A program made the position numbers and the translations under genes. From positions 1 to 31,363 of the IMG/VR virus record IMGVR_UViG_3300045988_116134: a DNA stretch of 31,363 bases. One strand, given 5' to 3'. Numbering within the stretch: the first letter of the stretch is position 1; the number at the start of each line of letters is the position of its first letter. Source of the DNA: a virus. A model generated the notes under the pieces. That model was given only the letters and a program-made list of their open reading frames with translations, was not told the DNA's origin and did not search any database. Below, piece by piece: positions 142 through 31,363 of this stretch.

Positions 142-211
142 TAATGCTCAGCATACGAACTACATTATATCCAATGTGGCTTGTGTGTTCGGAATGATAG
201 CTAGACGATAA
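1..211 (+). CDS. Large serine recombinase (integrase), C-terminal end; continuation of 29844..31363 across the circular junction
   Basis: The frame starting at base 2 (YLYDDKIVIYFNGS...) is the same frame as the ORF open at 31363. The stop TAA is at 209-211. The joined ORF is 529 aa. Confidence 0.9.
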   Translation, partial: YLYDDKIVIYFNGSNSANTVDYATVCEDLKKFEAEEKVRIRNAMPCHNAQHTNYIISNVACVFGMIARR

Positions 212-227
212 GTCTAGCTATTTTTTT
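198..227 (+). terminator. Rho-independent terminator after the integrase
   Basis: TAGCTAGAC-gataa-GTCTAGCTA forms a perfect 9-bp stem followed by T7. The integrase stop codon lies in the loop. Confidence 0.75.
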
Positions 228-268
228 ATAATTTTTTTAAAAAAATTAAAGAAATTTTGAAAAAACAC

Positions 269-297
269 TTGACTTTCTACACTAATTAGTGTATAAT
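269..297 (+). promoter_or_regulatory. Sigma-A-type promoter of cassette 1
   Basis: TTGACT (269-274), 17-nt spacer, TATAAT (292-297). Confidence 0.7.
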
Positions 298-306
298 ATA
301 ATCAAA

Positions 307-340
307 GATAAGGAAAGGAAATAAAAAAACAATCCTTATC
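307..340 (+). promoter_or_regulatory. Inverted repeat in the 5' leader (candidate operator or RNA hairpin)
   Basis: GATAAGGA (307-314) - N18 - TCCTTATC (333-340), just downstream of the predicted transcription start. It is identical in copy 2. Confidence 0.45.
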
Positions 341-367
341 AAAAAATAAAAAAGTGAGGAAAATAAA

Positions 368-604
368 ATGAAAGTTGAAATCAAAAACAATCGAATCTAT
401 ATGAATGGTGTTTTGGTAACGCCTAACACCAACGGAACTAATGGCAAGACAGTTCAAGGAACTTCAGCTAAAGGTTTATGGTTCAAAGGTATTGTAGATG
501 GTAAGTCCTATACCATCTACAAGAGAGATCTAATGAAGCCTGGTGCTGACCCTTACGAGGTTCACAACGTATTCTTCAATTACTGTAGAAACGAGGTTGA
601 GTAA
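368..604 (+). CDS. Hypothetical 78-aa protein, first gene of cassette 1
   Basis: ATG is preceded by a GTGAGG Shine-Dalgarno (SD) sequence. The stop overlaps the next start (TAATG). I recognise no family. Confidence 0.65.
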   Translation: MKVEIKNNRIYMNGVLVTPNTNGTNGKTVQGTSAKGLWFKGIVDGKSYTIYKRDLMKPGADPYEVHNVFFNYCRNEVE

Positions 605-1044
605 TGAACGTGAAGAAAACCATTGAAGAGGCAGTAGCGTTCAACTGTAAGAAATTGAGCCTACCTAAGCCTACTGTTAACTATGAACCACCTACAGAAT
701 TTAACACACCGACCACAAAGGCCGGTGTGGACCCAAAAAAGATTAACACTATAGGCGTAAATACTTCAACAAAATGGGAAAGTCCTATGGAAATTTGGTG
801 GGTGATTTCCCACGAAATGCGGCATCTGTGGCAAATTCAAACTAACTACTGTAAGTTAGTTAAACAAAAATACTCTAACTTGCAAGATTATGCTAAGCGT
901 CCTGAAGAAGTAGACGCCAATGCTTGGGGAATTTATGTTACTGCGATTAAATTTCAATCTCGTCCACTGCTAGAAAACGTGTATGGTCAAGATGTGTGGA
1001 AATTAATCGCAAAGAGGTTTAATGAAATTATTGAGGGAGATTAA
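604..1044 (+). CDS. ImmA/IrrE-like (COG2856/DUF955-type) zinc metallopeptidase, 146 aa
   Basis: HExxH motif in VISHEMRHLW, plus a downstream EEVDANAWG resembling the E-x-x-AN-x-FA signature of the family. Translationally coupled to the upstream ORF. Confidence 0.55.
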   Translation: MNVKKTIEEAVAFNCKKLSLPKPTVNYEPPTEFNTPTTKAGVDPKKINTIGVNTSTKWESPMEIWWVISHEMRHLWQIQTNYCKLVKQKYSNLQDYAKRPEEVDANAWGIYVTAIKFQSRPLLENVYGQDVWKLIAKRFNEIIEGD

Positions 1045-1049
1045 AAAAA

Positions 1050-1241
1050 ATGACTTTAAAAGAATTAAGAATTAAAAAGGGACTAACTCAAGCGGAACTT
1101 GCGGAGCAAACTGGCCTTAGCATTAGACTCATACAAAAATATGAGCAAAACGCTCAAGATCTAAATCGAGTCTATGCAATTACAATTTATAGACTCGCGA
1201 AAACACTTGATTGTAGATATGAAGATTTATTAACAATTTAA
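1050..1241 (+). CDS. Small XRE-family helix-turn-helix protein, 63 aa
   Basis: LKELRIKKGLTQAELAEQTGLSIRLIQKYEQ is a canonical XRE HTH. There is a GAGGGAGA SD upstream. Confidence 0.85.
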   Translation: MTLKELRIKKGLTQAELAEQTGLSIRLIQKYEQNAQDLNRVYAITIYRLAKTLDCRYEDLLTI

Positions 1242-1248
1242 TTTAAAA

Positions 1249-1278
1249 TAACTAGACGATAAGTCTGGCTATTTTTTT
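1249..1278 (+). terminator. Degenerate copy of the integrase terminator, downstream of the HTH gene
   Basis: TAACTAGAC-gataa-GTCTGGCTA followed by T7. The stem has one A.C mismatch and one G.U pair. Confidence 0.55.
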
Positions 1279-1318
1279 ATAATTTTTTGAAAAAATTAAA
1301 GAAATTTTGAAAAAACAC

Positions 1319-1347
1319 TTGACTTTATACTCTAATTAGTGTATAAT
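1319..1347 (+). promoter_or_regulatory. Sigma-A-type promoter of cassette 2
   Basis: TTGACT (1319-1324), 17-nt spacer, TATAAT (1342-1347). Confidence 0.7.
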
Positions 1348-1356
1348 ATAATCAAA

Positions 1357-1390
1357 GATAAGGAAAGGAAATAAAAAAACAATCCTTATC
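1357..1390 (+). promoter_or_regulatory. Leader inverted repeat, copy 2
   Basis: GATAAGGA - N18 - TCCTTATC, identical to 307..340. Confidence 0.45.
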
Positions 1391-1418
1391 AAAAAATAAA
1401 AAAGTGAGGAAAGTAACT

Positions 1419-1610
1419 ATGAAAATCAAGCCTGAAAATTTAGCAAAAACTCTATTAAAAAGAGCATATCAAAATGATTTTGACGCAGAACAAGAAAAAA
1501 GCATTAATAATGTGCTTGACAGAATCAAGGAAAGTGCAGAAGCTAAAGGCAGTACCTTTGCTGATGATTATGCCGAATTTTATCAATTGTTGCTTAATCT
1601 TGCTGATTAA
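1419..1610 (+). CDS. Hypothetical small acidic helical protein, 63 aa
   Basis: ATG at 1419 lies 9 nt after the GTGAGG SD. The ORF-track start at 1404 is a GTG inside the SD itself. The protein is rich in D/E (DFDAEQEK, ADDYAEFY). Confidence 0.65.
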   Translation: MKIKPENLAKTLLKRAYQNDFDAEQEKSINNVLDRIKESAEAKGSTFADDYAEFYQLLLNLAD

Positions 1611-1621
1611 GTAACAAAAGC

Positions 1622-1656
1622 AAAAAAAGGCTACTCAATCGAGTAGCCTTTTTCTT
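1622..1656. terminator. Bidirectional terminator between cassette 2 and the endolysin
   Basis: AGGCTACTC-aatc-GAGTAGCCT forms a 9-bp stem, flanked by A7 upstream and TTTT downstream. It sits between convergent genes. Confidence 0.8.
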
Positions 1657-1667
1657 ATGCTTTATAA

Positions 1668-2621
1668 TTAATAAATGTAATAACTTCTGCCTGCGTTGTC
1701 GGAGTCAAGTAACTTTGCGTACTTGCAGCCTTTATACTTTCCACTTTCAATAGTGCAGATAATTCTGCACTTGTGACTTGATTCGATTTTTGTATCAGTC
1801 TCAAACTTTTTTTCAAACTTATCAAGTCTACGCACTCTAGTACCAGCCTTGATAGTGATAGTCTTGTAGTTAGAGTGACTGTAACTACTTCCTAAATGGC
1901 TGCCGGCCATCCAACCTACTGTGTTGCCGGCCTTGACTTTAACCCATCCGGCTCCGTCATCAGATAGTACCGTTACTGTTTTACCTTTTTTTAAAGTTTT
2001 AAGTTTTGCACTAGCATTACCGATTGGGTCCTTAAAACCGTACTTATACAGTCCTGCATTACCTTGTAGTTTAAATTTCTCTTTTTTCTGTAGTTTCTTA
2101 GTTACAGTTTTCGCCAACTTGCCTAATCGACCATAGAGCCAATTGCCTGGGCAACTCTTATTATCAAACCATCTATGGACAGTTAGCACCATTTCATCAG
2201 ACTTAGGCTTGTAGCTTAGCGACTTGCTTTTACTATTGAACCACAGTAGCTTCTTCTTGTTGTTTCTCTTGCAAATATCAACACACAAATTCACAAGAGA
2301 TTTGTATACTTTACGATTCATAGCATAAGGTTCTTCAAGTCCACTAGCACATTCAATGGTAATAGCCCTCTGGTCGTTTGCGTTACTAGAAGAACACCAA
2401 CTACGGTTTTTCTCCTCAACAACAAGTGCTACTCTACCATCTGTGCCAATACCATAGTTGCAACTTGCCTCTCTTGATGGGCTTGTAAAGCAATTACAAA
2501 TAGATTCAGCTGACAACTGACCAACCACACAATGTGGTGTGATCCTGTCAATGGTGTGGGTTCTCTGTCCTGAATGATTTGGACTTAATTTAGTTACACT
2601 TACAAGTTTACTGTTACTCAT
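1668..2621 (-). CDS. Endolysin: N-acetylmuramoyl-L-alanine amidase (Amidase_2/PGRP-like) with a C-terminal SH3b-like wall-binding region
   Basis: N-terminal motifs (ITPHC, SCNYGIG.DGR, AITIE, SCPG) fit amidase_2. The C-terminal GWVKVKAGNTVGWMAGSHL is SH3b-like. The gene follows the holin. Confidence 0.85.
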   Translation of the reverse strand: MSNSKLVSVTKLSPNHSGQRTHTIDRITPHCVVGQLSAESICNCFTSPSREASCNYGIGTDGRVALVVEEKNRSWCSSSNANDQRAITIECASGLEEPYAMNRKVYKSLVNLCVDICKRNNKKKLLWFNSKSKSLSYKPKSDEMVLTVHRWFDNKSCPGNWLYGRLGKLAKTVTKKLQKKEKFKLQGNAGLYKYGFKDPIGNASAKLKTLKKGKTVTVLSDDGAGWVKVKAGNTVGWMAGSHLGSSYSHSNYKTITIKAGTRVRRLDKFEKKFETDTKIESSHKCRIICTIESGKYKGCKYAKLLDSDNAGRSYYIY

Positions 2622-3079
2622 TATTCATCCTTACTTTCTTCTGCGTCTGTTTTCTTTTCAACTGTTACTTTTAACCGTTTAATGATATTTGTCAAAAATT
2701 TAGGAATTGGAGTGCCAATTTCAGCCAAATTTTCGAGGATTGAGATTAACTCATTGATGATAAACCAAATCGTTACCACTAAACCGATATAGTAGCTTAG
2801 TTTAATATCAGTCCCTAATAGCATTAGAGCCTCTGAGATTATGTAATCTGCGATAATAGCAACTGCTACAGTTGCAAGATAACCGACCTTTTTTAAGATG
2901 CCAATGACACCGATACGGCTATTAAGTGTATGACTAACATATGCTTGAGCCATGCCTGACAAGTAATCAATAATCATTACTACTATTAGTACAATAAGTG
3001 GTACTAACAAGATATTAAGATAAGCAGCTATTGCTGCTGATACAGCTGTAAAAATTCCTTGTAAAAAATTCATTTTCAT
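2621..3079 (-). CDS. Holin (phage_holin_4_1 / TcdE-like family)
   Basis: Starts MKMNFLQGIF and has several TM helices. IDYLSGMAQA...GILKKVGYL matches the family core. The ATG at 3079 overlaps the stop of the upstream gene (ATGA). The longer ORF-track start is unlikely. Confidence 0.8.
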   Translation of the reverse strand: MKMNFLQGIFTAVSAAIAAYLNILLVPLIVLIVVMIIDYLSGMAQAYVSHTLNSRIGVIGILKKVGYLATVAVAIIADYIISEALMLLGTDIKLSYYIGLVVTIWFIINELISILENLAEIGTPIPKFLTNIIKRLKVTVEKKTDAEESKDE

Positions 3080-5100
3080 TTTTTTAACTCTCCTTCCTTT
3101 GTCATTAAATAAGTTAATGCTGTAAATTCGGCGTCTGAATATTGATAAAAGCCTTCGTCTGCTGGATGTACGCAATCTTTACAATACTCAACTGTTTTTT
3201 CAGACCTTTTGTTTACTTTTGTATTTTCCATTGTCATATTGTGTAATACATCGACTTGACAACTCATTTGCACAAAAGTTACGTAATCGTAACTATTAGC
3301 AATCTCTTGATATAGTTTGTTTAAGTCATATACATATTTATTTTGGCGAACCTGTGGCATTGTGTTACCATACGATTTGCGATAATGAGGGTACATATAA
3401 TGATAGCTTTCAAGTATGATTTTGCAATTTGGAAAACCTATGTGTGTGTTTTCAATCAACTTTTTGGCTCTCGTTTTCAAGTCAGACCAATTAAATTTAC
3501 TTGCAAAAGCACCGTTTTCGTAATCGTTCCAACCTAGCAGAATTACAAGATAATCAAGTTGTGTTTCGTTCAAAGCGTTTTGGACAAAATGTTTCATTGA
3601 GATATTGTTGTAGCTATCAACCCAAAGATAGTTGTTTGGGTATGCAGATGGTAAAGTATTAGGATTTTCGGTGTAGTTTGCCCAGCTATATCCACCTGTT
3701 CCAGTGAATTTATTACCGCTACCTTGACCAATTGACCTACCAATTAGCTTTGTGTCTGTTAAAGTAGTTTGACTTATTAAGTTAGCAGTTTCACCACTCC
3801 TTACTGCCATACCTGTAAAGCTATCACCAAGATACATAATGCGTCTTGTAGTATTAGCAAGTGCTGATATGTCAGCAACATAGATTTTAACTCTTTTACT
3901 GTCAATCACCTTGCCAAATCTGTCTAAAAGTTGAAATAATGGTAAATCGTTAGGTTTTCTCAAAGTCTCATCTGTGTAGTCAGCAGGACATTTGATAGTA
4001 ATTTTGTCACTATATTCTGTAATATATCCTGACAAATTGACAAGTCTTACATTATATTTGTTCTCAACATATTCATAGCTGCTGTAGTACATCCCATATT
4101 TAAATAGTTCAAGTGTCCCGCCTTTTTGAATATAAAAAGCGTCCGGTAAATCAAGTTTACAAATTTCGTTTGCTAATGCATATCTTGTGTCATTTTCTGC
4201 GATTGTATTAATACTTTTTCCTTTGATATGTGCTTCTGCAATCTTACTAAAGTCCGTACCACCGTACCAAAGCCAAATAATGTACTTATATCCAGCGACA
4301 GGACTAAATATAATTTTGTTTTTGGTATCTGCAATAGGTTTGACAAACTTATCGTTAGTATCATATTCAAAAACACTAGCATATAATGTTGGTCTATCCG
4401 TTGTAATTATCACATTGCTATATTGTGATAGGTCGAGTTTATTTGTTATGAAAGCTGACCCATCTTTTTCTTCGCCGGTTGCTTTGTCAATTGAACCAAT
4501 TTTATAATTGTAATGTAGATTGTAATAGCCGGTCGAAGTTGTAGATATGTCTGTCGCATTTTGCTTTATGTTAGTTTCAGACGTGATAAGTCTATTGATA
4601 ATATCATCAGCACTTTTAAGCTTGTCAATATTATCAACAAGTGTCTGTACTCTATCAGCTTTATCTTCAATGTCTTTGATTTCGATTAGTGCGTCAAGCA
4701 ACTTTCCAAACTCTCGACTTGCAACAATTTCTGATTCATCAGAGATTACAGACTCAGCAACTTTCACAATAAAAGTTGCTGAAGTTACAAACTGTTGATT
4801 GTCTTGCAAGACAACTTCGCAATTCAGTAGTCCCGGCGTATCCAACATAATCTTAGTTAATTCAACTGTGATAACATTATTTGTTGTATTAACTACAGCA
4901 GTATTGACTGCTTTAGTTTTGTTATTAATACTTGCTTTGACTGTCGCTACATAGTTACTAGATAAGGTGATAGTATTTCCATTTTCTGTGAGAGTGATGT
5001 CGATAAATCTCGTCTTGCTGTCGCCCTGATGGGCATTGAGTACCGTAAACGCTCTAGTGTCATTAACATCTAGAGTGATTTTTTGATGTTGCAGTTGCAT
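3076..5100 (-). CDS. Receptor-binding/baseplate protein: BppU_N-like N-terminus plus C-terminal SGNH/GDSL hydrolase
   Basis: N-terminus KITLDVNDTRAFTVLNAHQGDSKTRFIDITL is BppU_N-like. SGNH blocks are present: YLGDSFTG, LGWNDY, DCVHP (DxxH). The position is after Tal. Confidence 0.7.
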   Translation of the reverse strand: MQLQHQKITLDVNDTRAFTVLNAHQGDSKTRFIDITLTENGNTITLSSNYVATVKASINNKTKAVNTAVVNTTNNVITVELTKIMLDTPGLLNCEVVLQDNQQFVTSATFIVKVAESVISDESEIVASREFGKLLDALIEIKDIEDKADRVQTLVDNIDKLKSADDIINRLITSETNIKQNATDISTTSTGYYNLHYNYKIGSIDKATGEEKDGSAFITNKLDLSQYSNVIITTDRPTLYASVFEYDTNDKFVKPIADTKNKIIFSPVAGYKYIIWLWYGGTDFSKIAEAHIKGKSINTIAENDTRYALANEICKLDLPDAFYIQKGGTLELFKYGMYYSSYEYVENKYNVRLVNLSGYITEYSDKITIKCPADYTDETLRKPNDLPLFQLLDRFGKVIDSKRVKIYVADISALANTTRRIMYLGDSFTGMAVRSGETANLISQTTLTDTKLIGRSIGQGSGNKFTGTGGYSWANYTENPNTLPSAYPNNYLWVDSYNNISMKHFVQNALNETQLDYLVILLGWNDYENGAFASKFNWSDLKTRAKKLIENTHIGFPNCKIILESYHYMYPHYRKSYGNTMPQVRQNKYVYDLNKLYQEIANSYDYVTFVQMSCQVDVLHNMTMENTKVNKRSEKTVEYCKDCVHPADEGFYQYSDAEFTALTYLMTKEGELKK

Positions 5101-21247: not shown

Positions 21248-21475
21248 TTACCAATTTTCTACTATGCTGTAAATTCCACAACAGTTAAAAGTTTTGCAGT
21301 ACCACTCACAACTTTCCTTGATACATTCTTTCTTCAAGATCGGACAAATTTTCCCTTGCTTTTTTACTAATGTGTGTTTTACTTCTGTCTCTTCGTTTTC
21401 AAGAGCACAAATATTCAATTTACATTCAGTGCCGGACCTTGACACACACTTTAAATTTGGAAATTTACATTTCAT
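21248..21475 (-). CDS. Cysteine-rich small protein (75 aa, 11 Cys)
   Basis: ATGA overlap with the Rep stop. I recognise no family. Confidence 0.5.
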   Translation of the reverse strand: MKCKFPNLKCVSRSGTECKLNICALENEETEVKHTLVKKQGKICPILKKECIKESCEWYCKTFNCCGIYSIVENW

Positions 21476-22215
21476 TGTTTTAGCCTTCCTTTTTCGTAAA
21501 ATATTGATGAATTAAAAAAAGTAAATGAATAACTACAAGCCCAACTATCGTCTAACGGACAGTAATCAGATACAAGCGTATAGCCTTTTTGAGGTACATC
21601 AACAATTTCGCCTTTTTCGAGCTTTGCAAATCGCCTTTTCCCACATTTTACAACCTTGATTTCCGGCTTGGTGAGATTTCTGCTTGTCATTAATCGCTTA
21701 GAACCTTGTATATCTTTGCGTATGTATTCAGCCAGCTTGAAAAATTGACCATCTTCGTAAAGTGGTTGAAGATTAATGCCATTTTTCCATTTCCACTGTT
21801 CACGAGCGATTTTGACTATCTCAGCAGATAAGATAATGTGCAAGTGCCAGTTTTTCCCACGCACGCCACACTCAATAAAGCCTATGTACTTGACCTCTAA
21901 GCCGTTTTTCTTTGCGTGGTACTTAGTGCGGTTTATAAACTTGTTGACTTCTTTCCTAAATTCACTTTCGGTGAAAGTTTCGGTTGGAGCGGACAAACGC
22001 ACAAAGTAATCACCAGCTGAGAAGTTGCAACAGATAAGTCTCTGAGTGTTCTTAATTGCTCTTATCTTATTTGCTTTCTGTTGCTGTTCTTTGGTTTTGC
22101 AAATATTCTTGCCTCTTGCAACATTCTTTTTGTTGCGAGGCTTCAAACTTTTAATGTATTCAATTTCAGCCAAGTATCCGCTTTTGACAGTTCTCTTATA
22201 GTAATACATTTCCAA
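21472..22215 (-). CDS. HUH-superfamily rolling-circle replication initiator
   Basis: YFVRLS (motif 1-like), WHLHIIL (HUH) and LAEYIRKD (YxxK catalytic Tyr) occur in the canonical order. Confidence 0.65.
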   Translation of the reverse strand: MEMYYYKRTVKSGYLAEIEYIKSLKPRNKKNVARGKNICKTKEQQQKANKIRAIKNTQRLICCNFSAGDYFVRLSAPTETFTESEFRKEVNKFINRTKYHAKKNGLEVKYIGFIECGVRGKNWHLHIILSAEIVKIAREQWKWKNGINLQPLYEDGQFFKLAEYIRKDIQGSKRLMTSRNLTKPEIKVVKCGKRRFAKLEKGEIVDVPQKGYTLVSDYCPLDDSWACSYSFTFFNSSIFYEKGRLKQ

Positions 22216-22527: not shown

Positions 22528-23485
22528 TTTTTTGAATTAAATCACTTTTTGCAAATAGCAAGTTCGCAATAGCGATAGCTAACTTCTTCCTTGTCTGTTC
22601 ATCAGCAACTAAAGCAATTAAACTCTCAATCTTTGCGATTGTTGTTTGTAGATTGTCAAACTGTATCTTTAAATTAATAAGATTTTCGTCAATTGTAGAA
22701 GTTGACTTCTTAGAAGATTGTTCAAGTTCAGCAATCTTGTTTTCGTATTCTTGCTGATTCTGCAACATTTCTTGCTTTAACTTTAGCGCCAGTTCTTTGT
22801 TCTGCTTTAGTTCCTTTGCAGTTGACTGCAAATCTTCTTCGTGCTTTTCACGCTCAGCAGTTAAAGCCTTGTCGATTTCTGCTGAGAGCTTCTCAGCTAC
22901 TGCATCATCAATCGCAGTAGCTGACTTTTCTCTCTGCTGTACTAATTCAGTTTCTAACTGCTTGTTCTTATTTTCTAAGTTCGCAACAAGTTCACTGTTC
23001 TTCTTGCTATCCACTTTAGCTTGTTTGAGCTCTTCTGCTTGTTGTTCAAAGTTGAAAGAGAGTTGCTCACCTCGTCCCTGGAGCCTCTTAACTTCTTCTT
23101 TAAGTTCTCTGACTGTCATATCCTCAGCAGATTCAGTAATTTCTTCTCTGTCAAGTGCCGAAACTTGACTTATTAATTCAAGCTTGGTGATGCCTAAACT
23201 TTCGTTAGCCTCAATAAACTTGTTACCAAGTTTTTCATATGTACTGATGTAGGCGTAAGCCTGACGGCTCTTAATTCCTGCTTTTTCTTCTGTATATTGT
23301 TCAAAAGTAGAACAACCCAGTGAAAGATAAAGTTTTTCATCTCTCATTGTCTTTAGATTTTGACAAACATTAACTAATGCAGTTGCTAGCATTCTCTGAT
23401 TAAGCATTATGCTTGCGTGCAAGGCATTTGCTCTTTCTTCCTTTGTTTCTGCCAATGTGGCAGTGGTGTTAATTAATTCATTCAT
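22514..23485 (-). CDS. Putative DNA-binding protein with a long coiled coil
   Basis: N-terminus MRDEKLYLSLGCSTFEQYTEEKAGIKSRQAYAYI is HTH-like. The C-terminal ~200 aa are E/K/Q-rich coiled coil. Confidence 0.5.
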   Translation of the reverse strand: MNELINTTATLAETKEERANALHASIMLNQRMLATALVNVCQNLKTMRDEKLYLSLGCSTFEQYTEEKAGIKSRQAYAYISTYEKLGNKFIEANESLGITKLELISQVSALDREEITESAEDMTVRELKEEVKRLQGRGEQLSFNFEQQAEELKQAKVDSKKNSELVANLENKNKQLETELVQQREKSATAIDDAVAEKLSAEIDKALTAEREKHEEDLQSTAKELKQNKELALKLKQEMLQNQQEYENKIAELEQSSKKSTSTIDENLINLKIQFDNLQTTIAKIESLIALVADEQTRKKLAIAIANLLFAKSDLIQKIAEA

Positions 23486-25170
23486 TAACTTGCTTTCCTT
23501 TCTTTTTTGAGATTTTTACTGTTGTGAATAAATTCTAAAAATTCATCCATAAATTTTTTGACTTCTGCCGGTGCTGAAGCATTGTTTTTTGCTCGGCACT
23601 GTATCAATTCATCGTTAAGTGAGATTTCAACGGTGCAGTAAGCCTTGTCCGGCTCTGCCACCTTTCTCACTACTAGTAAGATTGTTTTTCCTTTGAGGTA
23701 TTTTTCACAATAATTTGTGTAAACGCAATTATTTTGTTGTTGGGCTTCCTCATACACTTCATCAATTGAGACAAGCGGACGAATAATAAGTCCTTTACTG
23801 CTGTAAGTGTATTTCTTCTTGTACTTCTTAAGCAATTTGTTAAACTTGCTTAGTTTCTGTTCTAACTTTGCTTTTCTTTCTTCGTCCTCTTTTTGTTGAA
23901 GCATTTGGACTGCACTATCGTGAGCAGTTTTAAAATTTGAAGGAAATAGGGTGTTTTCGTTATCTTTGTCAATATTCAATCTATCTAGTAGTATTAGATA
24001 GTCGTTATAATCACGAAAAGTTTCTAAATTTTGTTGCTTGAAGTATTTAACAATCTTATGATAGCTACGATACTTATGTAGCAAGTCAAGTTGTTTTTGA
24101 TGATAGATAATATCTGTGCTTCTGAGGTAGTACGCGTCTGTTACAGATATTTTATTTCTGATAAAGAATAATTCTTCTATGATGGCACTTTGGGTTCTTG
24201 CAAGTGGGTTGGGAATTTTCTTTTTGATTTTTCTTAATTCTGCTTTGTTACATTTGAAAACTTCCGCTACTGTTGATTTTCTGAAATTGAAAATTCCGCC
24301 TTTGAATTTAGAACTATAATAGTGAGAATATCCATTCTTGAAGTTTACAAACTGTCTAACTACCATTTCGAAGCCTTCAAGCAATAATTTCTCCAGTACC
24401 GGATATTTGTTACTGTAATATAAAAACAAGACAAGCAACTTGTCTTCATCACAAACACCCGGCTCAAAATTTCTGTATTTGTCTAACTTTGAATATTTTA
24501 AACTAGTGTTTTTTAAGTTACTATCATTAAAATAGAAATAGTGAGTAGGCTTGTCTCTATAATGGCCAAAGAGGTCATAGCGGCTCATTTTTGGTTCTCT
24601 GATTTTGTCAACTTGATAAAAATAGTGCTTTGAATTGTTAACATTATCAAAACTACAGTACCGGCTATCAGGATATTCACCCCAATAAGGCTCATAACAG
24701 TAAGCACGCCCTAATATGAGGCTTTCACCATTTCTCAAGAAGACTCTCTTATCTTCTGAATAAGTAATTCTTGGTTCATTTGATGTAGGAATGTCATAAT
24801 CGATACATATATAAAAACTACGAATGAAAGCACCACCGGCTTTGCTCTGTAGAATTACTATGTATCCGTTCTGCTCAAGCGTTTTTCTGCCTCGCCAGGC
24901 ATCATATTTCTTGACTTGCTTGTAGCAAGAAGGGCACATTCTCACATCTCTGTGCTTCCGTTCTGCGACAAGTTCAATTTTGTGATTATATTCGTTGTCA
25001 ACAAGTCTTCCTGTCTGTTTTTTGTAATACTTTTTACAGGCGGTACAGTAAAAACCATTCTTGTCTGCGAAAGCATAGTTGTTACACAGCTCTTTCTTTA
25101 TATCTTCCTCAAAAGTTCGAGGTAATACAGGTGGGTTGTGCATTACCATCTCAATAGTTCTCTTGTTCAT
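23485..25170 (-). CDS. PcfJ-like domain protein with an N-terminal zinc-finger-like region
   Basis: The C-terminus QQNNCVYTNYCEKYLKGKTILLVVRK...AYCTVEI...IQCRAKNN fits my memory of the PcfJ domain. The N-terminus has CTACKK...CPSC. Confidence 0.5.
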   Translation of the reverse strand: MNKRTIEMVMHNPPVLPRTFEEDIKKELCNNYAFADKNGFYCTACKKYYKKQTGRLVDNEYNHKIELVAERKHRDVRMCPSCYKQVKKYDAWRGRKTLEQNGYIVILQSKAGGAFIRSFYICIDYDIPTSNEPRITYSEDKRVFLRNGESLILGRAYCYEPYWGEYPDSRYCSFDNVNNSKHYFYQVDKIREPKMSRYDLFGHYRDKPTHYFYFNDSNLKNTSLKYSKLDKYRNFEPGVCDEDKLLVLFLYYSNKYPVLEKLLLEGFEMVVRQFVNFKNGYSHYYSSKFKGGIFNFRKSTVAEVFKCNKAELRKIKKKIPNPLARTQSAIIEELFFIRNKISVTDAYYLRSTDIIYHQKQLDLLHKYRSYHKIVKYFKQQNLETFRDYNDYLILLDRLNIDKDNENTLFPSNFKTAHDSAVQMLQQKEDEERKAKLEQKLSKFNKLLKKYKKKYTYSSKGLIIRPLVSIDEVYEEAQQQNNCVYTNYCEKYLKGKTILLVVRKVAEPDKAYCTVEISLNDELIQCRAKNNASAPAEVKKFMDEFLEFIHNSKNLKKERKAS

Positions 25171-27996: not shown

Positions 27997-28362
27997 ATGA
28001 CTACTGCTGATAAAATTAGAAGAGTGCGAAAACATTTCAAACTTTCTCAAACAGAGTTCGGCGAGAAGCTCGGTGTATCTGTTAACTTTATTGGTAATCT
28101 TGAACAAGGCAGAACAGAATTAAAGCCTTTAACGGCTCAGCTAATAAGTAGAGTTTTCGACGTCAATCCTTTATGGCTGGAAACCGGTGAGGGCGAAATG
28201 CTTATTGAGACTGATAGAGTTATTACTGATGAACTGTCGAAAAAATACAAATTGACGAACTTACAAGAAAAAGTTTTACTTAAGTATCTAAATTTAGATA
28301 CTAAACAAAGAGAAATAGTTGCTCAAGCAGTAGAGTTGTTGGCCAACGATTCTAAAGACTAA
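27997..28362 (+). CDS. CI-like XRE-family repressor, 121 aa, no S24 peptidase domain
   Basis: KLSQTEFGEKLGVSVNFIGNLEQGR is an HTH. The gene is divergent from the early operon. Confidence 0.85.
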   Translation: MTTADKIRRVRKHFKLSQTEFGEKLGVSVNFIGNLEQGRTELKPLTAQLISRVFDVNPLWLETGEGEMLIETDRVITDELSKKYKLTNLQEKVLLKYLNLDTKQREIVAQAVELLANDSKD

Positions 28363-28773: not shown

Positions 28774-29805
28774 ATGAAGAAAAAGAAATCAGCATTAAAC
28801 ATTGCAGGGATCATCTGTATATCAATCGGAATTATCGGGCTATTGGGACTATTTACTGAGAACGACAAGTTGAACTTGTTTCTTGGCTCAGCTTTTTTAA
28901 TTGTGCTTGGCTTTATTTTTATTGCAATTAACAAATTTACTCATAAAGACAGTAAAAATAACACATCTAATAACATCAATTTACAAAATCAACAACAAAT
29001 TAATAATAGCATTACTGCTGTACCGATTCAGGAAGAAAAGAAAGAAATCAAGAGCTTTACGCTTGATGAAGCTATTAATGTATATTGTTGTACTGAACAT
29101 AGTAGTTGTCCTGCTGTCTATGACTATAAGCAGTACTTTACTGATGCTTTTAACTGCATTGCGGATCATGTAGCAGAACATAAGACTATATTGAGTAATG
29201 ACAAAGTATTGAGAAAGAAAGAATTACACAATCCAATTGTGAATTATAAGAATATAACTAAAACTACTAACTGTAATAAGATTAAGAATTTTGTTGCAAT
29301 TGACTGCGAAACAACCGGACTCAAGGTTGGAGGCAATGACATCATCGAACTTGCAGCAGTTAAGTTTGTTGATTTTAAACCAACAGAAAAATATCATACA
29401 TATTTAAAGCCAAGAAATCCAATCCCAGCTGATGCAACTGCCATTAACCACATCACCGACGAGATGGTGGCTAATAGTCCGCTTTTTGCACAAGTATGTG
29501 CAGATTTTCAAAATTTTGTGCAAGATTTTGCAATAGTTGCTCACAACGCAGGTTTTGATATGAAGTTTCTTCACGTTAGTGGTCTTGATTTATCAAAACA
29601 CACTGACAAGGTTTATGATACTTATACATTAGCAAAAAACAAAATTAAAGGCTTAGATAGTTATAAGCTATCTAGCTTGTGTGAGGAGCAGAACATACAA
29701 TGTAGTAACTATCATACTGCACTTGCTGATGCACTAGCGTGTGGAATACTCTTTGTCGATATTATTAAGATTGTCAAAGAAGTTAAAAATGTAGAAGAAT
29801 TATAA
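28774..29805 (+). CDS. Membrane-anchored DEDDh (DnaQ-like) 3'-5' exonuclease, 343 aa
   Basis: Two N-terminal TM helices (IAGIICISIGIIGLLGLF, LGSAFLIVLGFIFIAI). ExoI is AIDCETTGL, ExoII is VAHNAGFDMKFL, and ExoIII is YHTALADA (H-x4-D). Confidence 0.8.
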   Translation: MKKKKSALNIAGIICISIGIIGLLGLFTENDKLNLFLGSAFLIVLGFIFIAINKFTHKDSKNNTSNNINLQNQQQINNSITAVPIQEEKKEIKSFTLDEAINVYCCTEHSSCPAVYDYKQYFTDAFNCIADHVAEHKTILSNDKVLRKKELHNPIVNYKNITKTTNCNKIKNFVAIDCETTGLKVGGNDIIELAAVKFVDFKPTEKYHTYLKPRNPIPADATAINHITDEMVANSPLFAQVCADFQNFVQDFAIVAHNAGFDMKFLHVSGLDLSKHTDKVYDTYTLAKNKIKGLDSYKLSSLCEEQNIQCSNYHTALADALACGILFVDIIKIVKEVKNVEEL

Positions 29806-29843: not shown

Positions 29844-31363
29844 ATGAATGAAAAAATTAACGCGGTGATTTATGCTAGATTTTCTAGCCACAACCAACAA
29901 GAGCAGTCTGTTGACGGTCAAGTCCGTTACTGCACTCAGTATGCAGAAGCTCACAATATGCGAATAATCGGCACATATGTTGATAGAGCCATGTCCGGAA
30001 CTAATGATAACAGACCCGACTTTCAGCAAATGATTAAGGACAGTGAAAACAAGCAGTTTCAGGTGGTCCTCGTTTGGAAGTTTGACCGTTTCGCTCGCAA
30101 TAGATATGATAGTGCTTTTTATCGTAGAGCATTAAAAAATAACGGTGTTACTGTCACATCAGTGACGGAAAGCGTGGGTGAAGGCTCAGAGGCTATTATA
30201 CTTGAGGCTATCCTTGACGCCATGGCAGACGCTTACTCTAAGCAGTTAGCAGAAAATGTTAAGCGTGGAATGAGAGAATCAGCGTTAAAATGTCAGACCA
30301 TCGGCGGGTGTACTCCACTTGGCTATGATGTAGTTAATAAAATGTATGTAGTCAACAAAGAAGAAGCCGAAATCGTTAAGTACATTTACAGGGAGTACGC
30401 AGACGGCAAAGGCAAGAAAGAAATCATAACTGAGCTAAATAACAGAGGCTACAAGACTAAGAGAGGCAAGAAATTTACAATCACAAGCTTGTCGCAACTG
30501 TTAAAAAATAAAAGGTATATCGGTATCTATGTATATAAGGATATGGAAATCAAAGACGGTATTCCGACGATTATTGACGAAGAATTATTTTATAAAGTTC
30601 AAAAAGTGGCGCTAAGAAATAAGCGTGATGCCTCACGCAAGAAAGCAAAGGTTGAGTATCTGCTGAGCGGTAAACTGTTCTGCGGCCACTGTGGTGAAGC
30701 TATGTTGGGTGAATCTGCTGTAAATCATAGTGGATATAAGTACTACTACTATGTATGTGGCAGCAGAAAGAAAAAATTGAGAATTTGTGACAAAAAGAGA
30801 GAAAAGAAAGAAGGCATTGAAGAATACTGTGTTCGTCAGGCTCTCAGCTTTTTCTCTGACAGAAAGAATTTGCAGTTGATTGCAAGAAAGGTTGTAGATT
30901 TATACAACTCAGAAATTGACAACGGACAAGTTGAAGTTCTAGAGCAGAATAAGATTAAGCTAGAAAAACAACTTGATGAACTTACTAACGCTCTTGTTAA
31001 AACATCAAATGTTAGAGTTTTATCAAAACTAAATGAACAAATTAATACTATTGACGAGCAACTATCTACTATAGATATAGAAATAGCAAGAGAAAAATCT
31101 CTTGCTACGGCTAAAATGTCTGTAGATGATGTTGTTGGATTTGTAGAAAGTCTGATCCGAGGAGGTGACATTAAGGATAATAAATTTAAAAAACAAATTA
31201 TTAATGTATTAATTAATAGGATATATCTTTACGATGACAAGATTGTTATTTATTTTAATGGCTCTAACAGTGCGAATACTGTAGATTATGCGACTGTTTG
31301 TGAAGATTTAAAAAAATTTGAAGCAGAAGAAAAAGTTCGCATACGGAACGCTATGCCCTGCCA
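29844..31363 (+). CDS. Large serine recombinase (integrase), N-terminal 506 codons; continues at base 1
   Basis: Starts MNEKINAVIYARFSSHNQQEQSVDGQ (catalytic Ser region). Other features are VVLVWKFDRFARN, a recombinase domain, a CGHCG...C zinc-ribbon region and a coiled coil. The ORF has no stop before the window end, so it is missing from the ORF track. Confidence 0.92.
   Translation, partial: MNEKINAVIYARFSSHNQQEQSVDGQVRYCTQYAEAHNMRIIGTYVDRAMSGTNDNRPDFQQMIKDSENKQFQVVLVWKFDRFARNRYDSAFYRRALKNNGVTVTSVTESVGEGSEAIILEAILDAMADAYSKQLAENVKRGMRESALKCQTIGGCTPLGYDVVNKMYVVNKEEAEIVKYIYREYADGKGKKEIITELNNRGYKTKRGKKFTITSLSQLLKNKRYIGIYVYKDMEIKDGIPTIIDEELFYKVQKVALRNKRDASRKKAKVEYLLSGKLFCGHCGEAMLGESAVNHSGYKYYYYVCGSRKKKLRICDKKREKKEGIEEYCVRQALSFFSDRKNLQLIARKVVDLYNSEIDNGQVEVLEQNKIKLEKQLDELTNALVKTSNVRVLSKLNEQINTIDEQLSTIDIEIAREKSLATAKMSVDDVVGFVESLIRGGDIKDNKFKKQIINVLINRIYLYDDKIVIYFNGSNSANTVDYATVCEDLKKFEAEEKVRIRNAMPC
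31223..31363. repeat. Terminal overlap, second copy
   Basis: Identical to 1..141. Confidence 0.95.

Follow-up and report, generated by a model that had tools for sequence, protein, structure and literature searches.

Our analyses show that positions 368-1241 of IMG/VR record IMGVR_UViG_3300045988_116134 (31,363 nt analysed in full and hereafter called the window) carry a three-gene operon that is part of the first of two tandem insulated cassettes; in each of these, the cargo follows a strong promoter that contains a palindrome, and a terminator stands at either end. The operon codes for an orphan protein of 78 aa, a stand-alone zincin of 146 aa, and a small helix-turn-helix (HTH) protein of the XRE type, 63 aa long, which we call HTH63. 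Its architecture is very probably that of an autoregulated cargo cassette resembling those controlled by anti-CRISPR-associated (Aca) proteins. For the locus as a whole, the best explanation is an Aca-like autorepressed cassette in which the zincin and the 78-aa protein are candidate cargo for counter-defence or other genetic conflict, a reading on which we are evenly divided. The locus belongs to a known kind, the HTH-autoregulated accessory cassette at a prophage end; its new elements are the anchor gene, a putative operator shared by two tandem cassettes, a protease as cargo, and the orphan partner protein.

Two tandem cassettes with a common palindrome

The two cassettes and the adjoining lysin gene comprise the following features (cassette 1 first):

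196-222 (+): intrinsic terminator, closing the integrase unit and opening the module of cassette 1
222-366 (+): direct repeat, copy 1, with the terminator tail, an A/T-rich stretch, promoter, operator, and 5' untranslated region (5'UTR)
269-297 (+): sigma-70-type promoter of cassette 1, TTGACT-17-TATAAT, 11 of 12 consensus positions
278-293 (unstranded): perfect 16-bp palindrome TACACTAATTAGTGTA in the promoter spacer, putative HTH63 operator
307-340 (+): 5'UTR stem-loop (GAUAAGGA / UCCUUAUC), -8.8 kcal/mol, z = -5.0
368-604 (+): gene 1, open reading frame (ORF) for the orphan 78-aa protein, cargo; beta strands and a C-terminal helix in the model
604-1044 (+): gene 2, ORF for the 146-aa stand-alone zincin, cargo; HEMRH at residues 70-74, E102
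1050-1241 (+): gene 3, ORF for the 63-aa XRE-type HTH63, putative autorepressor; matches to HTH_19, HTH_3, and HTH_26
1252-1268 (+): terminator of cassette 1
1272-1416 (+): direct repeat, copy 2, holding the corresponding elements of cassette 2 (promoter, operator, 5'UTR)
1319-1347 (+): promoter of cassette 2, with palindrome copy 2 inside
1328-1343 (unstranded): palindrome copy 2, one mismatch, in the spacer of the cassette 2 promoter
1357-1390 (+): 5'UTR stem-loop of cassette 2, same stem
1419-1610 (+): cassette 2 gene, ORF of 63 aa, to which we assign no function
1624-1653 (both strands): bidirectional terminator common to cassette 2 and the convergent lysin gene
1668-2621 (-): lysin gene, convergent with the cassettes

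The initial annotation of this DNA had described the three genes as tightly coupled, and every element of that description is present: a TAATG at 602-606 couples the 78-aa gene to the zincin gene by overlap, a gap of 5 nt (1045-1049) separates the latter from the HTH63 gene, and a GAGG-type Shine-Dalgarno sequence lies 9-10 nt 5' of each of the three ATGs. The genes are real, being intact ORFs in related prophages and subject to purifying selection. The ratio of nonsynonymous to synonymous substitution rates (dN/dS) against the related loci L007 and L005 is 0.31-0.43 for the 78-aa gene, 0.12-0.14 for the zincin gene, and 0.04-0.08 for the HTH63 gene.

The operon is flanked by the two 145-nt direct repeats, which are 94% identical (222-366 and 1272-1416) and may offer a ready substrate for the deletion or exchange of cargo by homologous recombination. 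A terminator of the 196-222 type is kept at the head of every cassette, and the ATG of cassette 2 (1419) aligns with the start codon position of cassette 1. The 63-aa protein of cassette 2 corresponds to the C-terminal part of a 163-aa protein in L005.

The palindrome at 278-293 lies between the -35 and -10 elements and overlaps the -10 element by 2 nt. Only two good copies occur in the window, both at cassette promoters, for 0.34 expected by chance; a search at the CI/Cro switch of the phage did not find it there, the switch having different repeats. In L007 the palindrome (TACTCTAATTAGAGTA) is still perfect, with changes on both sides. Promoter and palindrome are found in every HTH63 locus whose cassette-promoter region was covered, about 90 nt 5' of the first cargo gene and usually again 3' of the HTH gene. 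Beyond HTH63 loci, the palindrome search returned one viral-contig match (L098), incomplete and uninformative. Because the palindrome co-occurs with HTH63 and sits in the promoter spacer, the simplest reading is that an HTH63 dimer binds it and represses its own operon. The promoter had initially been called constitutive-looking: it is indeed near consensus, but the perfect 16-bp palindrome in its spacer speaks against simple constitutive expression. HTH63 dimers would bind between the -35 and -10 elements of both cassette promoters, and a burst of expression would be followed by repression, as with Aca proteins in acr-aca operons.

The 5'UTR stem is kept in sister cassettes through changes on both sides (GAUAAAGG / CCUUUAUC), with the exception of one cassette (L005_c1) from which the stem-loop is missing; an Rfam scan of positions 1-1800 gave only terminator-like noise.

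A megablast search of 25 kb against GenBank phages yielded no close relative, and a distant blastn search of phages matched only the promoter skeleton, in Streptococcus phages. The S. oralis phage PH10 (L096, record positions 31113-31199) shares with the window the A/T-rich stretch, the TTGACT-17-TATAAT promoter, and the AAGATAAGGAAAGG leader, here in front of small ORFs (54-52) that lie between lysA and the end of the genome; the inverted repeat in its promoter spacer differs from the palindrome of the window. This match suggests that the cassette skeleton is widely shared and that the regulators differ.

A conserved putative regulator with exchangeable cargo

HTH63 consists of an HTH domain only, matching the Pfam families HTH_19, HTH_3, and HTH_26 at about 1e-10, without a match in the PDB at E <= 1e-4 by sequence search. 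Its homologues form 47 clusters of proteins that are 81-100% identical and all 63-65 aa long. In the sister prophages with covered flanks that we compared, the HTH63 gene closes cassette 1 irrespective of the cargo, with the host/tRNA flank on one side and the lysin gene on the other. At least seven cargo sets lie 5' of this anchor (sizes in aa; ZnR-HTH, Zn-ribbon-HTH protein):

window, L007: 78 + 146
L005, L120: 78 + 150 + 104 + ZnR-HTH
L112, L124: 50 + 280
L121: 161 + 99 + 283
L116: 86 + 262 + 225
L126-128: 132 + 68 (AcrIC5-like) + ZnR-HTH
L129: 132 + 68 (AcrIC5-like) + 92 + 275

The exchange is clearest in L126, which matches the window at 95% identity over 1422-3095 and at 81-88% in the promoter module and the HTH gene, and departs from it exactly across ~385-1045, the segment of the 78-aa and zincin genes. 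The 68-aa protein that L126 carries there matches AcrIC5 (PDB 7yhr, E 3.3e-8). In L116, whose phage lysin differs, a 338-aa protein (396-1412) matching AcrVA2 (PDB 7ci1, E 8.2e-9; phrog_6160) is encoded directly 5' of the promoter of an HTH64-anchored cassette. At synonymous sites the HTH gene is much the more diverged, with a dS of 0.77-3.1 versus 0.12-0.36 for the zincin gene when both are compared between the same two genomes, a contrast that fits a cargo moving between diverged chassis.

Since one HTH, conserved at 81-100% identity, closes cassettes whose cargo differs widely, HTH63 appears to be a conserved cassette regulator and anchor, not a dedicated partner of the peptidase. The proposal that the operon represents a second, dedicated protease-HTH pair of this phage therefore has to be abandoned: the same HTH ends peptidase-free cassettes, XRE genes are not enriched beside the zincin family (see below), and a 79%-identical zincin occurs without the HTH.

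PADLOC recognised only generic HTH models in the ZnR-HTH protein, three sister cargo proteins match PHROGs of unknown function, and PDB sequence searches with the 280-, 262-, and 225-aa cargo proteins found no match. The slots of L126 (1402-2639) and L129 (247-2112) contain a 132-aa protein in which a ParB-N-like GSHR motif can be seen by eye. The ZnR-HTH protein (200 aa) combines Zn-ribbons, a Lys/Glu-rich linker, and an XRE HTH, and in L017, an unrelated phage, a homologue is encoded three genes 5' of the 79%-identical zincin. In L112-L115 (~3816-4319), a gene for a transposase of the IS200/IS605 Y1 type lies just 3' of the HTH63 gene, between the cassettes.

An uncharacterised family of small zincins

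The 146-aa protein carries HEMRH at residues 70-74 and EEVDANAWG at 101-109. Seven residues do not vary among 93 relatives (H70, E71, R73, H74, Y96, E102, and A105), and a further two, D104 and A107, are conserved in at least 90%. AlphaFold2 (AF2) predicts an N-terminal helix (H3-17), three strands (E24-28, E40-42, E49-53), the HExxH helix (H61-79), and the helix bearing the downstream Glu (H100-117), which is a zincin topology, with a pLDDT of 81 and only one of five models being confident. With this model, the leading Foldseek matches in the PDB are all zincins (proabylysin and selecase at E 0.02-0.09), and those in BFVD comprise IrrE-N-like and SprT-like proteins as well as zincin domains from large phage proteins (E 1e-4 to 1e-2). 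A profile of the family retrieves the minigluzincin selecase from the PDB at 1e-4. Taken together, these results give the protein a metallopeptidase fold with the full gluzincin catalytic set, and profile and Foldseek searches keep it, as first proposed, among the metallopeptidases.

Its placement among the ImmA/IrrE-like peptidases is less direct. The M78 motif has the form E-x-x-A-N, with E-x-E-A-N-x-F-A as signature, and the zincin combines HExxH with a downstream Glu in a motif of this E-x-x-A-N type. The M78 profile itself (PF06114) scores 11.4 bits (E 0.28), under its cut-off of 22, and IrrE was absent both from the PDB profile matches at E <= 10 and from the top 50 Foldseek matches in the PDB. 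Pfam DUF6782 (PF20573) comes closer, at 20.7 bits for a gathering cut-off of 27, with a match that spans only ~47 of the 241 profile positions. DUF6782 is matched by 72 of the 93 relatives (best 1e-8; P0007 has a precomputed PF20573 match), M78 at E <= 0.01 by 20, and the 'metallo-protease' phrog_87 by 15; PADLOC and NCBIfam scans of the zincin itself gave no match. Judged by these profiles, the zincin looks like a distant relative of M78, nearer to DUF6782, and lies outside M78 by the Pfam threshold. The ImmA/IrrE likeness noticed at first thus holds for the fold, the HExxH, and a distant link, and fails for membership in M78 (11.4 versus 22 bits).

An exhaustive profile search gathered ~400 clusters at 50% identity, the majority of them stand-alone proteins of 140-160 aa. 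The zincin thus belongs to an uncharacterised stand-alone family of ~145 aa, and a literature search found no papers on DUF6782. The neighbours of the family are heterogeneous across 25 distinct phage loci. An XRE HTH lies within two genes of the zincin in 6 of 97 cases versus 10 of 284 (p = 0.20), and because this adjacency is not significantly enriched, the family is not an obligate protease-repressor pair. Some copies have an integrase gene (L034, L039) or a serine recombinase gene (L035) as neighbour, and in L072 the order is a 205-aa gene, a 71-aa HTH gene, and the zincin gene, with a 1-nt overlap and convergent with a lysin gene. Many copies in phage contigs of 100-196 kb are lone genes facing against their neighbours; upstream ORFs in this large-phage group, considered as a conserved zincin partner, proved spurious.

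In L001-L004 and L018-L032, a 56%-identical zincin is encoded within a long series of small unannotated genes on one strand of a mobile element or phage, together with Sak, SSB, a PD-(D/E)XK nuclease, a primase-helicase, PemK, and a large methylase-helicase elsewhere in it. Directly 5' of this zincin lies a gene for 118 aa, joined to it by an ATGA overlap, in L001-L004 and five of the viral contigs; the remaining copies have other genes there.

The 78-aa protein

The product of the first gene, which had not been recognised initially, indeed matches no family in Pfam, PHROG, NCBIfam, or PADLOC. Its AF2 model (pLDDT 89) shows beta strands followed by a C-terminal helix, for which Foldseek found no fold match in the PDB (best E 0.55). 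Only close homologues were found, encoded directly 5' of the zincin in every neighbourhood examined. A relationship with the small genes that lie 5' of distant zincins was considered and is not claimed, the best hhalign alignment covering 20 columns at 55% probability. In L016 and L017, a 79%-identical zincin occurs without the 78-aa gene and without a downstream HTH, and the partnership of the two proteins is therefore lineage-specific.

Position in the phage genome and in the lysogen

The first 141 nt of the window recur at 31223-31363; the window is therefore a circular phage genome of 31,222 bp, in which the plus strand reads CI, DEDDh exonuclease, integrase, and the three-gene operon:

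27997-28362 (+): CI repressor, 121 aa, HTH only
28774-29805 (+): membrane-anchored DEDDh exonuclease, 343 aa, with an N-terminal membrane segment and a DEDDh domain
29844, across the junction, to 211 (+): large serine recombinase (integrase), 529 aa
128-141 (unstranded): approximate attP crossover core CTGCCATAATG, within the 3' end of the serine-integrase gene

The initial annotation had placed a peptidase-less CI-like repressor and its switch at about 27.9 kb, across the junction from the operon. Because the window is circular, this is correct: a divergent CI/Cro switch lies at about 27.87-27.99 kb, and CI consists of an HTH and a tail of ~55 aa, without an autopeptidase domain in a family scan.

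The homology with integrated prophages begins at window position 136 and abuts the 3' end of tRNA-Gln(CTG), which places the attP core inside the last codons of the integrase gene. The integrase is 529 aa long in the circular form and 519 or 500 aa in integrated copies, and integration therefore rewrites its C-terminus. In these copies the operon stands directly beside host genes (Rrf2 and a Cys/Met-metabolism enzyme) and is convergent with the lysin gene. To judge from them, the operon of a lysogen is the first transcription unit at the tRNA-Gln end of the prophage, ~28 kb from CI. The suggested moron position is thus confirmed, between the tRNA-Gln/attachment site and the lysin gene; as in morons, the operon has its own promoter and terminator between conserved phage genes, in a position that would allow expression in the prophage. 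The host is a Ruminococcus/Oscillospiraceae bacterium of the human gut. The prophage is very common in human gut metagenomes, with 369 blocks of the collection listing an identical CI, and every contig with the lysin of the window also has the operon. Both operon proteins that we looked up at NCBI are labelled 'hypothetical'.

Likeness to known systems

In acr-aca operons, aca genes close the operon and repress it via inverted repeats (PMC6765145, PMC9410906, PMC8633003). The cassette shares with them the strong promoter, small unannotated cargo, a small HTH gene in last position, and an inverted repeat overlapping the promoter, to which binding is predicted. It also shares the combination of a constant anchor with variable cargo, an AcrIC5 homologue being found in the slot and an AcrVA2 homologue adjoining it in sisters. 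By operon layout, HTH63 can be likened to Aca proteins of the Aca1/Aca2 type and to the AcrIIA1 loci of Listeria prophages. In clostridial phages, guilt by association starting from AcrIC5 led to putative acr loci beside an amidase gene (PMC10732046), and the locus described here likewise lies beside the lysis module. By contrast with acr-aca operons, the cargo includes a predicted enzyme, not only small binders, and two tandem cassettes with one shared operator are involved, flanked by 145-nt direct repeats. Within the initial suggestion of an anti-defence or anti-repressor protease with an Aca-like autoregulator, the regulator is the best supported part, through the anchor position of the HTH gene, its co-occurrence with the palindrome, and the swapping of cargo, with binding as a prediction.

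With the M78/COG2856 systems ImmA/ImmR (ICEBs1 and phages), IrrE/DdrO (Deinococcus), and CapP/CapH (of CBASS, the cyclic-oligonucleotide-based anti-phage signalling system), the zincin shares HExxH and a Glu ~28 residues downstream within E-x-D-A-N-A, the presence of its gene on a mobile element near an XRE HTH, and weak profile links to PF06114 and phrog_87. Unlike them, it is a single domain of 146 aa, without the C-terminal regulatory domain of ImmA/IrrE; the 63-aa HTH is tail-less, has no cleavable C-terminal domain, and also serves non-peptidase cargo; and the order is peptidase then HTH, away from the phage repressor. A type II toxin-antitoxin (TA) unit of the Xre-COG2856 kind is not supported, for lack of co-inheritance, the zincin and HTH63 each occurring without the other.

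The same minimal zincin core is found in phage and other mobile-element contexts in the MPTase domains of polyvalent proteins and ArdC (PMC5512222), and the BFVD matches include zincin domains in phage proteins of 657-1143 aa, whereas the zincin of the window is stand-alone and unfused. There was no sign of its being packaged or injected, no search aimed at this having been made. The minigluzincins (selecase MJ1213 and proabylysin) share its small size and are the closest solved structures by profile and by Foldseek, but they are archaeal, without mobile-element context, and the similarity is weak (TM-score 0.4-0.53), the sequence match being limited to the N-terminal 80 residues. Finally, morons and lysogenic-conversion cassettes share the own promoter and terminators, the location between the lysis genes and the prophage end, and the orientation opposite to late genes, and the same skeleton occurs in PH10; the cassette of the window differs in having a built-in putative operator and regulator instead of a plain constitutive promoter.

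Possible functions of the zincin and the 78-aa protein

In the mechanism that we propose, the 78-aa protein and the zincin would be exchangeable cargo between the promoter module and the HTH gene. The zincin, with H70, E71, H74, and E102, would be an active Zn-peptidase cutting a protein in trans, its target being most likely an immunity or regulatory protein of the host or of a rival element and not HTH63, while the coupled 78-aa protein may be a modulator or adaptor of the zincin or a second, independent effector. Because sister phages hold anti-CRISPR homologues in the same slot, we regard the two proteins as a candidate counter-defence module, and zincin-like peptidases are the commonest domain of the early conflict effectors of phages and plasmids (Iyer et al. 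2017, PMC5512222). The counter-defence role initially envisaged accordingly finds indirect backing in the acr-aca layout and in the Acr homologues in or next to the slot. Of this model, the anatomy, its conservation, the swapping of cargo, the pairing of the palindrome with the HTH, and the zincin fold with its motifs have been shown, whereas we infer the DNA binding of HTH63, the proteolytic activity and its target, and the counter-defence role.

Several points weigh against this interpretation. Guilt by association is an indirect argument, because such hot spots also hold defence genes or other morons. None of the scanned sister cargo was assigned to a characterised family in Pfam, PHROG, or PADLOC, and a literature search found no metalloprotease acting as an anti-CRISPR or anti-defence protein. 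The strand of the operon, that of the lysogeny genes, and its moron-like insulation suit prophage expression equally well. In some phages, members of the zincin family lie near integrases, lysins, and XRE genes, and the coupled HTH-then-zincin pair of L072 looks ImmA-like. A bolder version, which we find rather unlikely, would make the zincin, either by itself or through the 78-aa protein acting as its adaptor, a new proteolytic counter-defence effector that destroys a Cas or other immune protein of the host, HTH63 a new Aca-like anchor that marks a hot spot for at least seven sets of unannotated cargo in very common human-gut Ruminococcus prophages, and the ~400-cluster family a widespread class of phage anti-immunity proteases.

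The cassette might instead protect the lysogen, the zincin being a latent toxic or phage-triggered protease and the 78-aa protein its inhibitor or sensor, in a defence or exclusion system of the TA/abortive infection (Abi) or Lit kind autoregulated by the HTH. The Lit zinc protease of e14 is a precedent for a prophage-encoded Abi protease. Moron insulation and the location at the prophage end on the lysogeny strand agree with this idea, as does the TAATG coupling, which would suit an enzyme-inhibitor pair; autoregulation by an HTH protein is also usual in type II TA operons, and the same phage has a defence-like transmembrane DEDDh exonuclease beside CI (PADLOC PDC-S48, 3e-29). We nevertheless consider it unlikely. 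Neither the zincin nor the 78-aa protein matches PADLOC, the two genes are not co-inherited, as the 79%-identical zincin without the 78-aa gene demonstrates, many family members are the lone genes of 100-196 kb phage contigs, and the sister cassettes hold Acr homologues, not defence genes. Moreover, pneumococcal COG2856 proteins are non-toxic on overexpression (PMC4257102).

Two further explanations would have the zincin cleave a repressor. As an anti-repressor of the ImmA/IrrE type, it would induce the prophage by cleaving the S24-less CI of the window, or the repressors of competing prophages, and the operon would be a detached part of lysogeny control. CI does lack an autopeptidase domain, a PHROG scan of the early region showed no anti-repressor of the Ant/Bro type, and no HExxH peptidase other than the zincin was noticed in the genome. 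Its E[IV]DANA[WFY] motif resembles the M78 signature, a minority of relatives match M78 or phrog_87, the operon follows CI, exonuclease, and integrase on the plus strand of the circle, and L072, with its coupled pair, and L034, L035, and L039, with copies beside integrases, point the same way; the Listeria protein MpaR is a precedent for cleavage of a repressor across elements (PMC6872733). This scenario is nonetheless distinctly improbable, given that the zincin gene does not adjoin CI, is served by a separate promoter whose operator bears no relation to those of the switch, and in the lysogen lies ~28 kb away at the other prophage end. Sisters with the same backbone, compared at the cassette-lysis region, replace the zincin with unrelated cargo, and it is therefore dispensable for the life cycle of the L126-type backbone; the lack of XRE enrichment and of the C-terminal regulatory domain of ImmA/IrrE (146 aa, one domain) also disagrees. 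The repressor might otherwise be HTH63 itself, in a switch of the CapH/CapP kind in which the HTH represses both cassettes and a stress-triggered zincin cleaves it, derepressing the 78-aa protein and the payload of cassette 2. The same operator at both promoters and the protease-like fold of the 146-aa protein would allow it, and CapH/CapP and ImmR/ImmA provide precedents (bioRxiv 10.1101/2022.04.27.489752). We deem such a switch very improbable because HTH63 is a bare domain, without the linker or tail of the kind cut in ImmR, DdrO, and CapH, and because the majority of HTH63 cassettes lack any peptidase, so that the regulator works without one.

If the Aca-like counter-defence reading is right, HTH63 and its palindrome could be used to trace, through guilt by association, the anti-defence genes of gut Clostridia phages, few of which are known, and the zincin would be a first example of a small stand-alone metalloprotease as anti-defence cargo. 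Whatever the function, this work defines a family of uncharacterised stand-alone zincins (~400 clusters at 50% identity), an orphan protein of 78 aa whose confident model has no solved counterpart, and a modular cargo slot flanked by 145-nt repeats.

Other genes of the phage

The exonuclease encoded at 28774-29805 matches the PADLOC DEDDh model at 9e-37 and the candidate system PDC-S48 at 3e-29, and is likely, by these matches, a prophage-encoded defence or exclusion gene; some sister prophages (e.g. L100) have an extra gene for a 261-aa ion channel at the same spot. The majority of early-region genes have no annotation. This region also encodes a PcfJ-like protein of 561 aa (23485-25170, minus strand) and a rolling-circle-type replication initiator (21472-22215, minus strand; phrog_3584).

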